From positions 1-64,000 of IMG/VR virus record IMGVR_UViG_3300025030_000074: a DNA stretch of 64,000 nt; one strand, written 5' to 3'. Below, piece by piece: positions 14,706 to 38,237 of this stretch. This stretch comes from a virus. The position numbers and the translations under genes are program-made. Numbering within the stretch: the first letter of the stretch is position 1; each line of letters starts with the position of its first letter. Below the pieces are notes generated by a model. It saw nothing but the letters and a program-made list of their open reading frames with translations, searched no databases and had not been told where the DNA came from.

Positions 14706-15398
14706 TTAAGTTATTTCTTTTATAATTCTATTTCCTTTTTTTCTATTTTCTTCTATAGTTAGAGGTTGCAAATTAGAATAATGGAAACACTTGTTTTGTT
14801 GTTCCGCATCAGAAAAATCAAACTTGCTACAAGGAATTATATGATCTATTTCCCAATAACTTGCATAGTTATACCAAGTCATACCTGTTTGAAATTGACT
14901 TTCAATATAATATTTCAAAACTTCGGAACTACATCCCAGTAGATATAATGTTTTTTTAGATTTTAAGTTTCCTTTAATCGCTTTATACAGTCTACTTCTT
15001 AGATTCGATAATATTTTAAACGCAATATCTTTTTTTAATCTCTCTTTTCTATATCTTATAACACATTTCATTATTCTCTTTTTATGTTTGAGATAATATC
15101 TTCTACTTCTTTCTTTTCTTTTTCCCGTTCCCTTTATCTTTTTTTGATACTCTTTACTGTAATTTGGATATTTTTCTTTATAATTTTGACGATATTTTTT
15201 TATTTTATTTGGGTTTTTCTTTCTCCATTTTTTGTTTCGAGCATTTATCCCATCCTTATTTTTTATCCTATACTTTCCAGCTTGTTCTATTTTGCATTTT
15301 TTACATTGCCTACTAAAATACCCGCTTACAATATAGAACTTTTCTATAAATTTTTCTTCCTTACATTTACTACATATTCTATTCATTATACATATCAA
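14706..15398 (-). CDS. HNH homing endonuclease
   Basis: N-terminal CxxC..CxxC; LRSRL...LGCS...WEIDHIIP...CFHYSNLQPL..EN..K. Start overlaps the TerL stop. Confidence 0.85.
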   Translation of the reverse strand: MICIMNRICSKCKEEKFIEKFYIVSGYFSRQCKKCKIEQAGKYRIKNKDGINARNKKWRKKNPNKIKKYRQNYKEKYPNYSKEYQKKIKGTGKRKERSRRYYLKHKKRIMKCVIRYRKERLKKDIAFKILSNLRSRLYKAIKGNLKSKKTLYLLGCSSEVLKYYIESQFQTGMTWYNYASYWEIDHIIPCSKFDFSDAEQQNKCFHYSNLQPLTIEENRKKGNRIIKEIT

Positions 15399-17359
15399 AA
15401 GTTATTTGATTCAAAAATCCTTTTATCTAAATTCTGCTTTTTAAATAGATTTCTTTTCCAAAAAGGATCATCTAGAATCGTCTTTGGTTCTTCAACTTTC
15501 TTAACTATCTGCTTTCTTGTCTCGGCTTCGTGATATAGTACACAAATCAACGCCATCACCCTGTCCGCATTCAAATCTTCTCTATAAGCAATAAGTTCTT
15601 TAAGTAAAGGAATAGAACGAATTTTTTGAAGATTCATGGTTCCATCACCCCTATCTTCTATTAAAAAATTGTAAATAAGTTCCTCTCCATATTCCTTTAA
15701 TCCCTTTGTCATATGCATTCCCTTATACCTGTTTACCCTGGAATCTCTTATTATGTCCTTTATAATCTCCGGTTCATCAGCTAAGAGATAAAGACAAAAC
15801 TTGCTTTCAAAATAGTCGAAGATTCCCTTCTTCTCATTTTCGTATAGGGCTTGGCAATTATAGAAAAGAAGTAACCTTCTTGCATTTTCATAGTATTCTT
15901 TTGCCGTATTAGGTCTTCCTGTATATTCAGCAACGATGGTTTTATTTATCTTATCATAAATAAGTGTTGATCCTAAAGAAGATGTTTGGGAGCTATCGTG
16001 ATCGTATGGATCGATTCCACCAAGATACATCCCATAAGGAACCTTTCCTTCTTCATTGGTGTAGGGCATATTATATATGACCACACATCCATCTGAGGCT
16101 TGATTTACTCTTAAAGGAAAATCTACTATTGGATATAATTTTGGATCTTCTTTCCAGGTTATCTTTCCTCCCTCATTTATCAGAAGGTTTCCTATATAAT
16201 CTGCCCCTTTTATCTTTTCATTAGCCTCTAAATATCCTAATCTATGCTTTAAATCCACTATAGGAAATCTATTGGTGACAGAAAGATAAAGACTTTCCGA
16301 AGGACCAAAAGGATGTTCTATCATCCTAGATATCAATGCAGACTTATCCTTAGATTTCCTAGCAATAGAATCTCTTATTGCCTGTTCGTGAATACGAGCC
16401 TTTTCTCTATCAGAATTTCCTTCTTCATCAATGAATCCTAACTTATTTTGATAGTCGGGAAAAAAGAATCCGCATTTTCTTGTATCTTCCTCCCATACAT
16501 TATCGAAAGGAAGAACATTATAAAGTTCGGGATTATAGTATATCTCACTTACATCTTGTAACCCCTCACCAATCTGACCTCCGGTGCCTCCAAGAATTAT
16601 CAATCCCGTAGTATAAATCCCATCTTCTACAGTATCTTTTGTAGCAAGATAACTTGCCATAAGATTTGACCAAGTTCCAATTTCCTCAAAAATTATTAAA
16701 GACGCATCTTTTCCCCGAGCGCTGTCCGGATTATCGTTAAAAGTTAAAGCTATAACTTGGGATTGGTATCCCTTCTCAATCTTCATTCCATCCTTTTCTT
16801 GAAGATATCCGGACTTCTTATGTGATCCAGTGTCAACGATTCTTTTCTTAGCCCAACCAGTGTGTTCATTTAAGAAGTTTAGTTGGCTAATAGTCATAGA
16901 CATAGTACCTTCCGGATACAAGTATTTCTTAGAGGACGCTCCTATGAGAGTAACTGACTTTCTCATAGAATTGTATCTGTTTGCACAGATAGCGGACGTC
17001 TTCCATGAGAAGCCCCGTCTTCTGGCTTTTAACAAGCAGATATGTTTACCTTCTTGCTCCGCCCTTTCTATGATATTAAAATATTCATAGTCTCCGTCCC
17101 AAAAATTTGGAAAAGCTTCTGTCTTTCTCTTTATGAGAGCATCATCTTCATCAGTAAGCATTATTCTGCAGAAATTAAGGTAAAAATAGTGGTTACCTGT
17201 AATACGTTTTCCACCAACGGAATAACCTTCCTTACATCTTCTTAATTGCTCATTCCAGTATGTATGCCAATTTGGACTATCAAAAGGATCTCCTATATAG
17301 AAACCTTGCTTCTTAAAGGCAGCAGCTTCCGTACAGAATAAATTTGAATTAGTCCACAT
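15395..17359 (-). CDS. terL: terminase large subunit
   Basis: Walker A-like KARRRGFS, Walker B IIFEEIG, coupling motif GTGG, nuclease GIDPYD...DRVMAL. Confidence 0.95.
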   Translation of the reverse strand: MWTNSNLFCTEAAAFKKQGFYIGDPFDSPNWHTYWNEQLRRCKEGYSVGGKRITGNHYFYLNFCRIMLTDEDDALIKRKTEAFPNFWDGDYEYFNIIERAEQEGKHICLLKARRRGFSWKTSAICANRYNSMRKSVTLIGASSKKYLYPEGTMSMTISQLNFLNEHTGWAKKRIVDTGSHKKSGYLQEKDGMKIEKGYQSQVIALTFNDNPDSARGKDASLIIFEEIGTWSNLMASYLATKDTVEDGIYTTGLIILGGTGGQIGEGLQDVSEIYYNPELYNVLPFDNVWEEDTRKCGFFFPDYQNKLGFIDEEGNSDREKARIHEQAIRDSIARKSKDKSALISRMIEHPFGPSESLYLSVTNRFPIVDLKHRLGYLEANEKIKGADYIGNLLINEGGKITWKEDPKLYPIVDFPLRVNQASDGCVVIYNMPYTNEEGKVPYGMYLGGIDPYDHDSSQTSSLGSTLIYDKINKTIVAEYTGRPNTAKEYYENARRLLLFYNCQALYENEKKGIFDYFESKFCLYLLADEPEIIKDIIRDSRVNRYKGMHMTKGLKEYGEELIYNFLIEDRGDGTMNLQKIRSIPLLKELIAYREDLNADRVMALICVLYHEAETRKQIVKKVEEPKTILDDPFWKRNLFKKQNLDKRIFESNNF

Positions 17360-25667: not shown

Positions 25668-26108
25668 ATATTGAACCAAATACCTAATGACCAATTCCAT
25701 TGTTTTTAGACTTTATATAGATTTGAATATTGAAAAAACTAGAATTGGAGTAGTCTCTTGTTAGTCGTAGCCCCTTGCCCCAATTCGTTACGTTCTGAAG
25801 GTGTTCTGGATTCTGCCCTTTCTCTTTTTATATTTGACTAAAGATATGAAAAGGAAGTACCAACAAACAAGAATAGTAACAACAACAAAAGAACAACTAA
25901 TAAGAGTAGAATAGCGTTTTGGAAGATAAATCCTACGACTAAGAAAATAGTACTCCAAAACTTGTTTTTTTGCGAATTTTTTAACCTAATACCTAAATAC
26001 TATGTACACATTAATCGCAGCTTTCTTATTTATTAGCGCTCTAATAGTTACTTGTTACTTATTACTCAAAAAATATGACGAGGATTTCTAACCCAATACC
26101 TAAATACT

Positions 26109-26532: not shown

Positions 26533-26829
26533 ATGACTAAAAACGAATACTTACTTACTTTACTTGCAGAAGAATGTGCCGAATTATCACAGACCGCTTC
26601 TAAAGCACTAAGATTTACTACCAAAAAAATAGGACCTGGTCAGAAACTTAATAATGAACAAAGAATAGCTCAGGAATTCTTTGACCTAATAGCTATTGTA
26701 GAATTACTACAGGAAAATGAGGTCATAGATTATTTCAAAGTTGATGAACAAAGTATTGAGAACAAAAAGAATAAAGTTGCAAAATATATGAAGTATTCAA
26801 CCAAAATAGGAGTAATTAAAGAAACCTAA
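26533..26829 (+). CDS. MazG-like NTP pyrophosphohydrolase
   Basis: LAEECAELSQ..SKALRF...QEFFDL. Confidence 0.75.
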   Translation: MTKNEYLLTLLAEECAELSQTASKALRFTTKKIGPGQKLNNEQRIAQEFFDLIAIVELLQENEVIDYFKVDEQSIENKKNKVAKYMKYSTKIGVIKET

Positions 26830-27092
26830 AAAGTAATAACCTAACATGTGGAAAGGCACAAAAGAGTAGGTAAAGCGCATTTCCAAACTACTGAAAGGCA
26901 CGGGAGAGTAGGGAAATAATGTTGTTGATGAGAACCAAAAGTGAGGAAAGGTAAGTGGGAGTAGGTCTATCACCTTCCTAATATTACCTGAAAAACCATA
27001 AAAACCCACCATTATTTCACTCTGATTAGTTTTTTTATACCTTTGAGTACAACTGTCTTTAATTAACCAATTACTAACTTAAAACCAAAACA

Positions 27093-27689
27093 ATGAAAAA
27101 CCCAATAAAGGTAAAAACCACAAAGATATACAAGAATAGTCAAGAACGACATACTGTATGTAAAGGAAAATTGGTATTAGTAGTAGTTAATGAACCTACG
27201 TTATTGCATATTGAAGCAGATGGATTGTTAATGTTTTATGATAATCCTTGTATTTATAGTAACTCAAAAAATATTAGTCCAATAATCATCTCCAAAACAG
27301 AAGAAATTGAAATTGGAGATAATTATTTGGATAGGCTTAATACCATACAAATCTGCAGTAGTAAAAAAGAAAATATTTTATATCCTGGAGTAGCTAACAG
27401 CATAGGATCCAAAAAAGGAATAGGATTCAATAAATTTTCACTTCAAGTATATCATAAAGACTTTTTAAAGCTTTCCGATTGTTTTAAAATCCTTGCTCTA
27501 CCAGAAAACTTCTCTTCCAAAACATTGAAAGATATTGTAGATGGAAAACTGAAAGATGGAGACGATGTGTTTGTTGAGGTATGTAAAGGGATGAATTATT
27601 CTTATCCTAATCTAATTACGGGAATTAAAATTGATAAAAATAATCACATCAAACTATTTCCGCTTTCTATTCCTGATGACAATCATTAA
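27093..27689 (+). CDS. hypothetical early protein
   Basis: 198 aa with the leader motif upstream. Confidence 0.65.
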   Translation: MKNPIKVKTTKIYKNSQERHTVCKGKLVLVVVNEPTLLHIEADGLLMFYDNPCIYSNSKNISPIIISKTEEIEIGDNYLDRLNTIQICSSKKENILYPGVANSIGSKKGIGFNKFSLQVYHKDFLKLSDCFKILALPENFSSKTLKDIVDGKLKDGDDVFVEVCKGMNYSYPNLITGIKIDKNNHIKLFPLSIPDDNH

Positions 27690-27787: not shown

Positions 27788-28144
27788 ATGAAAATAAACG
27801 GAAAAAACCCAGATACTACTTTTACCAGTTATAAAGAAATAGCTGTAAGATATTCTAGAGGTTTGTTCGGGTTAGGTAAATTAAAGGCTTCAGTAGTTGA
27901 TAATTATAAACTTGAAATAGATATAGACAACAATACGGCAACTATTATTAAGGGAGACGCCACTGATTATGGCGCAAGCGCCTATTCTATGTTTCAAGAT
28001 GACTTTGATGATGTATATGAGTATGACTTAACTAACGAGAAAGATTTAGAAAAATTAACTCAATTCATAATTACAATTTTTGGTATTAACTCCAAAGAAT
28101 ATTTATATGTAATAACAAATACAAAAGCAAAATTACTAACTTAA
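27788..28144 (+). CDS. hypothetical early protein
   Basis: 118 aa flanked by leader motifs. Confidence 0.65.
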   Translation: MKINGKNPDTTFTSYKEIAVRYSRGLFGLGKLKASVVDNYKLEIDIDNNTATIIKGDATDYGASAYSMFQDDFDDVYEYDLTNEKDLEKLTQFIITIFGINSKEYLYVITNTKAKLLT

Positions 28145-28273
28145 AATCTATAAAGCCATGGGAAAAATTGCAGATTCAATAATTAGATGAAAAATCTTAT
28201 TTCATCACTAAACGATAAAGATAATTTAACAGAACAAACTACCGAAAATGAAAGCGGGTATCGTATATCCCTT

Positions 28274-28462
28274 ATTATAGGAAGTTTTTTGGGGGCATCA
28301 GAGACACAGCCGAAAGTAGGTGCTGTGTGCTATCGGTTGCAAACGGTAGCAACTTGCCAAAGGGCACAACATATCACAGCAGAAGCAAACCACCGCAAGG
28401 TGTTGGGTGAAAGTCCACTGTTGTTAAGGGTTGAGGGCTGCCCCCAAAAAATTTACTATAAG
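28274..28462 (+). ncRNA. multibranched structured RNA candidate
   Basis: 16-bp closing stem and five or more internal helices, several with GNRA loops; a GC-rich island. Confidence 0.7.
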
Positions 28463-28549
28463 AGGTTTTCTATTGAAGAGAAATCTTCTATGAAGTAAAA
28501 AGGTTTCACCAGCAGGTTTATTTCTTAACTTTAACTAAATTAACTAACT

Positions 28550-28930
28550 ATGGGAACACTAATAACAATAACCGAAAACCTGGCTAGGACAGAGAAGTTA
28601 TACTTCGTGAAAAAGATAATGACAATTGCTAGTTTAGTAAATGCTCCTCATCACAAAGAAGTTGAACTCTTTGACCGTCTATGGGATATAGATAATATAG
28701 AACAACTTAAAAAAACTTTGACCCTTTTCGAAAAGAACGTTTCTAATATGGAAACTGATAGAAAAGAAAAAGTTCAGCTTAAGATGGAAAATCATCTCCG
28801 TAACTTACAAGCTAAAATACTCAATCTTAAAAGATGGAACGAAGATGTGGTTATGACAGAGATTTATGAAACTGAAAAGAACATGTTGTTAGAAGATTTG
28901 AGAAAAATAACAGGTAAATACTACTATTAA
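28550..28930 (+). CDS. hypothetical early protein
   Basis: 126-aa ORF. Confidence 0.6.
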   Translation: MGTLITITENLARTEKLYFVKKIMTIASLVNAPHHKEVELFDRLWDIDNIEQLKKTLTLFEKNVSNMETDRKEKVQLKMENHLRNLQAKILNLKRWNEDVVMTEIYETEKNMLLEDLRKITGKYYY

Positions 28931-37817: not shown

Positions 37818-38237
37818 ATGATTTGTTATTATGCTCATAGTCTATTAACTTACGGAACAGTAAAGGAATATCATGAAAGAACATTCCTTGAAACAAAATT
37901 CCAAAAAGTTATATGCCCCAACAGAGATTTAGGAGGAAATTCTCCTTCTGTATCTATGGAACCTTTTCTAAATATGGTTTCTGTTTGTAATGTTTTAGTT
38001 GTATCAGAATTCAGAGGTTTCATAGGAAAAGGAGTCTTCACAGAAGTTTGTAGGGCAGCCGGAGAAAATAAACAAATCTTGGTTTTAAGAAAAGTAAACA
38101 GTAGCTTAAAGCTTTTAGAATTTAAAAAAGTAGTTTTAAATGATGAAAGTGATTGGAAACTTAATTATGGAATAGTTTACGTAAAATCTGAAAAAAAAAC
38201 TAACATCAATAAAAACTATGAAAACAAAATTTCTTAA
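37818..38237 (+). CDS. nucleoside 2-deoxyribosyltransferase-like (flavodoxin-fold) protein
   Basis: YYAHS...CPN...CNVLVV...GKGVFTEV..A. Confidence 0.55.
   Translation: MICYYAHSLLTYGTVKEYHERTFLETKFQKVICPNRDLGGNSPSVSMEPFLNMVSVCNVLVVSEFRGFIGKGVFTEVCRAAGENKQILVLRKVNSSLKLLEFKKVVLNDESDWKLNYGIVYVKSEKKTNINKNYENKIS

Follow-up and report, generated by a model that had tools for sequence, protein, structure and literature searches.

What does the GC-rich island lying between two small early genes of this phage encode: an RNA, a protein, or a signal in the DNA itself? The window analyzed here, i.e., the whole stretch of 64,000 nucleotides, takes in the opening 64 kb of an IMG/VR virus record that is 83,083 bp long and an estimated 87% complete. 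Among the products of the phage are a large terminase, a portal protein, a major head protein and a family A DNA polymerase. The large terminase gene lies on the minus strand (15395-17359), and the nearest large terminases in IMG/VR are 35-54% identical and reside on short contigs, so that this phage lineage appears poorly sampled there. The stretch was matched in 20 DNA sequencing runs, which belong to 11 studies on groundwater or soil, with no RNA runs among those listed. When four sequencing runs were compared, their contig fragments were identical to the window and showed neither variants nor joints. Beyond about 25.1 kb the plus strand carries all of the genes, including the neighbors of the element, which lies within a 405-nt gap separating small early genes at 27788-28144 and 28550-28930 and ends 88 nt short of the ATG at 28550.

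The element (bases 28275-28461) has a GC content of 0.46-0.48, compared with 0.23-0.35 in the sequence around it and 0.25-0.33 in the phage. Folded as plus-strand RNA, it had a minimum free energy of -79.2 kcal/mol (z = -5.4), a stability that 200 dinucleotide shuffles never equaled. The minus strand yielded -66.0 kcal/mol (z = -3.9), i.e., a folding asymmetry between the strands of 13 kcal/mol, and five of the 60 pairs in the plus-strand fold are G.U, which would appear on the minus strand as C.A mismatches. On these grounds the plus strand is favored, as claimed in the original prediction, and all of the helices named there are present in the sequence. It had also described a basal closure of 16 pairs; the closure is present, but its length is 22 pairs plus one G.A mismatch (inverted repeat I1).

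In the predicted fold, this 22-pair basal helix, P1, closes a five-way junction from which arms A, B and C and a branched arm D emerge, all features being on the plus strand. The 5′ strand of P1 (28275-28297) pairs with its 3′ strand (28439-28461). The junction strand UCAGAG (28298-28303), in which one change was inferred at 28302 in the homologue P0002 described below, connects P1 to arm A (28304-28328), an 8-pair stem (28304-28311 with 28320-28328) capped by the loop GAAAGUAG, which contains GAAA. Arm B (28329-28350) adjoins arm A without a linker, and the two are predicted to stack directly; it has a 7-pair stem (28329-28335 with 28344-28350) and an 8-nt loop, GUUGCAAA. This loop contains the self-complementary hexamer UUGCAA, although chance alone could well place a 6-nt palindrome in one of five loops. 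There follow the junction AACU and arm C (together 28351-28366), a stem of four pairs (28355-28358 with 28363-28366) with the loop AAAG, and then, directly adjoining, arm D (28367-28433), from which the junction strand AGGGC (28434-28438) leads back to P1.

Arm D is predicted to consist of stem D1 (four pairs, 28367-70 with 28430-33), an internal loop, stem D2 (seven pairs, 28376-82 with 28418-24), and a three-way junction bearing two 4-pair hairpins, i.e., D3 (CACC-GCAA-GGUG, 28391-28402, GCAA loop) and D4 (GGGU-GAAA-GUCC, 28405-28416, GAAA loop). The internal loop is 5x5 (AUAUC/UAAGG) and resembles the 11-nt tetraloop receptor, with one extra C. The two-hairpin top of arm D was recovered by RNAalifold from the window and the inferred P0002 sequence, the model for D3 and D4 having been chosen partly after the P0002 comparison. 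The segments CACAGCCGAA (28305-28314) and CACAGCAGAA (28375-28384), i.e., the 5′ strands of arm A and D2 with the first unpaired bases, are near-identical, which hints that these two parts may have arisen by internal duplication. A candidate -1 frameshift site (U UUU UUG within P1) and a P4-like pseudoknot (AGUCC with GGGCU) were both dropped, there being no support of any kind for either.

A search of the whole window against Rfam 15 (4227 models) at gathering thresholds gave no match, and searches of 701 and 206 bases with lax filters returned only noise, with E values of 3-8 (snoRNA, miRNA and sRNA terminator fragment). ARAGORN identified no tRNA or tmRNA, and inspection by eye revealed no core motifs of hammerhead, twister or HDV type. 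Rfam 15 thus agreed, even at E < 10, with the original prediction that no known family is involved. Its suggestion that the motif GGUGAAAGUCC recalls group II intron domain I or the T-loops of FMN/cobalamin riboswitches was not supported, because no covariance model matched and the motif is best read as the GNRA hairpin D4, whose loop in P0002 is inferred as GCAA, so that one GNRA loop takes the place of another. Cobalamin and FMN riboswitches were rejected on the same evidence. Riboswitches in general were discarded in view of the 22 pairs of P1, the failure of a terminator scan to detect anything downstream on the plus strand, and the unrelated flanks in three lineages. Group I and group II introns were likewise rejected: no model matched, the flanks are unrelated across the three lineages, and the 3′ sequence of P0002 does not continue that of relatives lacking the element.

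Because the element underlies a 103-codon ORF, P0001 (28187-28498, plus strand), protein catalogues could be used as a proxy in the search for homologues. In 5.8 billion clusters and 1.84 billion representatives, which were read exhaustively, only two other lineages were found, i.e., P0002 (with P0009 and P0010), from JGI contigs of up to 4.7 kb, and P0006, from a 734-bp ENA contig. Both are known solely as predicted "proteins" from miscalled ORFs. Residues 30-91 of P0001, corresponding to bases 28274-28459, were 72-79% identical to P0002 and about 50% identical to P0006. The similarity was confined to the element, with its edges at the foot of the basal helix, and the N- and C-terminal parts differed in both sequence and length. 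Four other matches from the representative search (P0003, P0004, P0005 and P0007) were repeat proteins and were set aside as chance matches. The element is very probably an RNA of about 165-190 nt from an undescribed, very small family of three lineages, carried by groundwater and soil phages.

Other searches added no members. No homologue was found among GenBank phages using blastn or tblastn; three DNA-pattern scans of IMG/VR gave chance matches or none, and scanning IMG/VR with P0002 and two neighbor genes yielded no relatives. In the JGI metagenomes a protein pattern found no relative and the DNA pattern TGCTATCNGTTGCAAANGGTA gave two chance matches, while two DNA-pattern scans of GTDB genomes returned nothing or chance matches. 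A covariance model of the element, R1, detected no second copy in the phage genome, as was also the case with BLAST, and found nothing in the 11 IMG/VR records nearest by large terminase (≤54% identity, mostly short fragments). The peptides flanking the element had no paralogue in the phage.

The homologues were compared with the window at the level of bases by threading their residues on the window's codons and taking the nearest codon, a parsimony procedure that is independent of structure and to which synonymous changes are invisible; two comparisons, with P0002 and P0006, were made in all. For P0002 there were 17 inferred base changes (28280-28462), 10 of them at paired positions touching seven pairs, none of which was broken. 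With the same number of random nonsynonymous changes, 7.3-8.7 broken pairs would be expected, and not one of 5000 simulations left every pair intact. Two pairs had changed on both sides, from G-C to A-U at 28335/28344, the closing pair of arm B, and from A-U to U.G at 28376/28424 in D2; five further pairs had single changes to or from wobble. Five of the inferred changes create G.U pairs, which argues for an RNA rather than a DNA palindrome. Four pairs were altered in arm D, and all are still paired. The sole change in a hairpin loop was that from GAAA to GCAA in D4, which, as inferred, retains its GNRA identity.

With P0006, eight pairs outside arm D had changed, of which five were kept, one was ambiguous and two were broken, compared with an expectation of about 7-8 breaks (P for two or fewer, 0.001-0.005, with about 0.001-0.03 as a broader range). 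One of the breaks is at a helix end, and a C-to-U change, synonymous and hence invisible here, could restore the other pair. The P1 pair 28296/28440 is inferred to have undergone a double change, from C-G to A-U. Arm D of P0006 is 9 nt shorter and rearranged, so that this arm, which bears GNRA loops, is the variable part of the element. By contrast, a block of about 70 nt, from the loop of arm A through arm B, AACU and arm C, is near-invariant, with three base changes across both homologues. Within arm A, two pairs are inferred to have become wobbles in both homologues; the GAAA of its loop is unchanged, and in P0006 an A is inferred in place of the last G of the loop (28319). The arm B loop, GUUGCAAA, is invariant in all three lineages, as are AACU and arm C at the residue level, apart from a change from G-C to G.U at 28356/28365 in P0006. 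Pairs were thus preserved above chance in bases inferred from translations, and these comparisons argue that the element is very probably an RNA structure maintained by selection.

A profile search (P0011) and a follow-up search (P0012 and P0013) identified relatives of the left flank of P0002 that lack the element, with 74-87% identity. Their likeness to P0002 ends at the residues AVIGS, at the foot of the basal helix, after which unrelated, AT-type sequence follows. All three are small ORFs on Logan/ENA contigs of 1.3-2.2 kb, and P0011 continues with GDYQQKLKYEAQKK, as does P0013. Comparison of the flanks in the window, P0002 and P0006 showed no relationship among them. The three unrelated flanks and the relatives without the element together show that it travels or disappears as a unit. 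As the right flank of P0002 resumes the sequence of the element-less relatives for two residues at most, insertion, deletion and module swap could each account for the difference. The limits of similarity at the helix foot, the conservation of pairs and the left-flank relatives without the element together suggest a self-contained RNA cassette. It is bounded by a terminal inverted repeat of 23 nt, and an imperfect 15-nt direct similarity, as judged by eye, appears to flank the core. A repeat of the MITE, Correia or RPE type was rejected as a candidate, because BLAST and the covariance model at E < 10 each located a single copy in the 83-kb genome.

How might the element be transcribed? A 14-15-mer early-region leader motif, TTACTAACTTAAAA(C/T), begins at 27071, 27763, 28133 and 37794, in each case 22-26 nt ahead of a start codon; three of the copies precede the ATGs at 27093, at 27788 and near 37819. 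The copy on the plus strand at 28133-28147 precedes the ATG at 28159, and the only ORF behind it is a putative ten-codon mini-ORF (MGKIADSIIR, 28159-28191, plus strand), whose TGA stop overlaps the ATG of the ORF at 28187 as ATGA. This copy probably marks where the transcript or cistron carrying the element starts, as judged from the recurrence of the motif. A second motif family, TAACC(T/C)AATACCTAA, lies ahead of the starts at 26003, 26109, 26414 and 26533. A scan for sigma-70 promoters and terminators identified neither, and the plus strand downstream of the element was blank. Just 3′ of the element, in the tail of the ORF, there is a hairpin with a GNRA loop (GAAGA-GAAA-UCUUC, 28474-28488), with no U run after it.

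The neighboring genes gave few clues. Neither 27788-28144 nor 28550-28930 had a match in Pfam, and with PHROG the two flanking genes gave one marginal match only (28550-28930, E = 0.009, function unknown). None of the ORFs near the element (93-230 amino acids) belonged to a reverse transcriptase, RNA-guided nuclease or recombinase family by Pfam or PHROG. Retron ncRNA, TnpB/IscB omega RNA and IS110 bridge RNA were rejected as candidates, the requisite adjacent gene being absent when Pfam and PHROG were applied to the neighbor ORFs. The small early gene at 26533-26829 (plus strand), 1.4 kb upstream of the RNA, corresponds to PHROG 4856, nucleoside triphosphate pyrophosphohydrolase (MazG-like), with an E value of 3.5e-17.

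We propose, with a probability of about 0.45, that the element is a processed, folded RNA that acts in trans after being cut out at its long basal helix from a plus-strand transcript of the early genes. An early transcript would carry the folded RNA of about 165-190 nt; P1 would be the substrate of a double-strand-specific RNase of the RNase III type, and the cut would free the folded core to act in trans. The structural requirement of RNase III is about 20 or more near-continuous pairs, and the 22 pairs of P1 run on unbroken but for a single G.A mismatch. The near-invariant A-B-C block would form the working surface, either as a binding or decoy site for a protein or as a site of self-association via the UUGCAA loop of arm B, through which a symmetric kissing dimer could form. 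Arm D would help to hold up the fold as a buttress, and the receptor-like AUAUC/UAAGG loop within it would accept the GAAA of arm A. An invariant surface combined with a variable buttress is typical of partner-binding or catalytic RNAs and untypical of stabilizer hairpins. We favor release and action in trans because of this pattern, and because the 22 pairs of P1 are of a size suited to RNase III and too stable for a riboswitch. A bolder version, which we regard as distinctly unlikely, is that the element represents a new class of small autonomous RNA machine, a cassette that passes from phage to phage by entering small early genes in their 3′ part, and that would work early as a ribozyme or as a dimer formed through UUGCAA, e.g., as a decoy against a host defense or RNA-handling protein.

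An unlikely alternative is that the element acts in cis as part of the early mRNA, providing an RNase III site, with the core shielding the ends of neighboring cistrons or controlling translation of the gene at 28550. Its position between two early genes, 88 nt ahead of the latter's ATG, and a helix of the size cut by RNase III would both fit. Phage early transcripts, e.g., those of T7, are cut by RNase III at such sites. However, a processing or stabilizer hairpin needs no five-way junction, invariant 70-nt block or GNRA loops, and P1 is too stable for switching of the riboswitch type. The element's sequence was also kept while its flanks and neighbors differ completely, and a tie to one particular downstream gene is disfavored by this conservation amid unrelated flanks.

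It is very unlikely, in our estimation, that the element is a catalytic or mobile RNA, i.e., a small self-cleaving or self-ligating ribozyme or a self-removing, intron-like element in small phage genes, even though the compact fold, in which several GNRA loops accompany a receptor-like internal loop, would suit such an RNA. The occurrence in three unrelated contexts, and the presence/absence polymorphism with its junction at the basal-helix foot, would also be expected, as would the in-frame position within ORFs, although this last is biased by the mode in which homologues were discovered. Against these likenesses, the Rfam ribozyme and intron models were unmatched even at E < 10, and hammerhead, twister and HDV-type cores were not seen by eye. 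There is, in addition, a single copy per genome, and in P0002 no clean "exon" is restored after the element, beyond the two residues at most already mentioned.

The ORF at 28187-28498 is most likely spurious, an artefact of gene calling, since selection appears to act on the RNA fold rather than on residues; the original prediction had suspected as much. That it encodes a real small protein, the RNA fold being incidental or a second layer on coding sequence, is highly improbable, although several features would suit it. The frame of 103 codons is open in an AT-rich genome, its ATG overlaps the stop of the mini-ORF that follows the leader motif, and there are two invariant Cys residues. In its first 29 codons the GC pattern, GC1>GC2>GC3, resembles that of coding sequence, as in the phage genes. 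Within the element, however, GC by codon position is 0.52/0.44/0.44, and this GC3 is atypical of the phage genes, in which GC falls to a GC3 of 0.14-0.33. The same frame is open across the element in all three lineages (P0002, P0010 and P0006 besides P0001), but this is explained by the homologues having come from a protein database, a search that selects open frames, even if translation may still occur. One open frame of three is also unremarkable, as the element's other two plus-strand frames hold just two and four stops. Conservation ends with the element, the N- and C-terminal parts being unrelated across lineages in sequence and length, and radical replacements are frequent within it (H to C, L to K, T to M, E to G) while the RNA pair is always kept. 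P0001 had no match in Pfam or PHROG, and AlphaFold, given a four-sequence alignment, produced a poor model (pLDDT 57, pTM 0.31).

A DNA-level element, such as a miniature inverted-repeat transposon, a cluster of protein-binding palindromes, or a replication or recombination site, could account for the 23-nt terminal inverted repeats, for the 24-bp near-palindrome at arm B (I2) and for presence/absence among relatives, but is barely plausible given one genomic copy (by BLAST and covariance model), five G.U pairs created in P0002 and five in the window that DNA, or the opposite strand, could accommodate only as mismatches, the 13 kcal/mol strand asymmetry of folding, and the retained identity of the GNRA loops.

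Elaborately folded RNAs in this size range that combine conserved junctions with GNRA loops are seldom encountered, and past cases have proved to be ribozymes, riboswitches or RNA-only assemblies. The present value of the family is limited by its tiny size, i.e., three lineages. More generally, "hypothetical proteins" catalogued from metagenomes can turn out to be RNA genes in translation, and the catalogues can be mined for homologues of RNAs.

Five known systems invite comparison. The Rickettsia RPEs and Neisseria Correia elements are also about 150-200 bp with long inverted repeats, lie in-frame in ORFs, and show presence/absence, and elements of this type would be expected to be cut by RNase III once transcribed. 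They occur, however, in many copies with a simple hairpin interior, whereas the element described here is single-copy with a branched, compensatorily maintained interior. The pRNA of phi29 is, likewise, a phage-encoded folded RNA (120-174 nt), and it oligomerizes by loop-loop pairing. Its Rfam model was, however, unmatched, its architecture is a three-way junction with two interlocking loops, and it comes from phi29-like podoviruses with a terminal protein, whereas this phage has an ordinary large terminase. The lysine riboswitch (about 180 nt) is similar in size, in having a five-helix junction closed by P1, and in lying upstream of a gene. The element differs from it in having no Rfam match, a 22-pair, non-switchable P1, no expression platform, and flanks and downstream genes that are not conserved.

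The RNase III sites R0.3-R1.3 of T7 share with P1 an intergenic, plus-strand stem of at least 20 pairs within a polycistronic early region. The T7 sites are, however, single irregular hairpins of about 50-60 nt, whereas P1 encloses about 140 nt folded as a conserved five-way junction, with the conserved sequence in the distal arms.

Finally, the ornate RNAs (GOLLD, ROOL, OLE and raiA) differ from the element in that it is 3-5 times smaller, was found in three lineages only, and did not match their Rfam models. Like it, they are multi-branched, rich in GNRA loops and A-minor contacts, partly phage-borne, and had no known function when found. By cryo-EM, GOLLD, ROOL and OLE self-assemble via kissing loops, some of which are self-complementary (PMC12286853). 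The counterpart of those self-complementary loops in the element would be the invariant, palindromic UUGCAA loop of arm B, through which self-association could take place.
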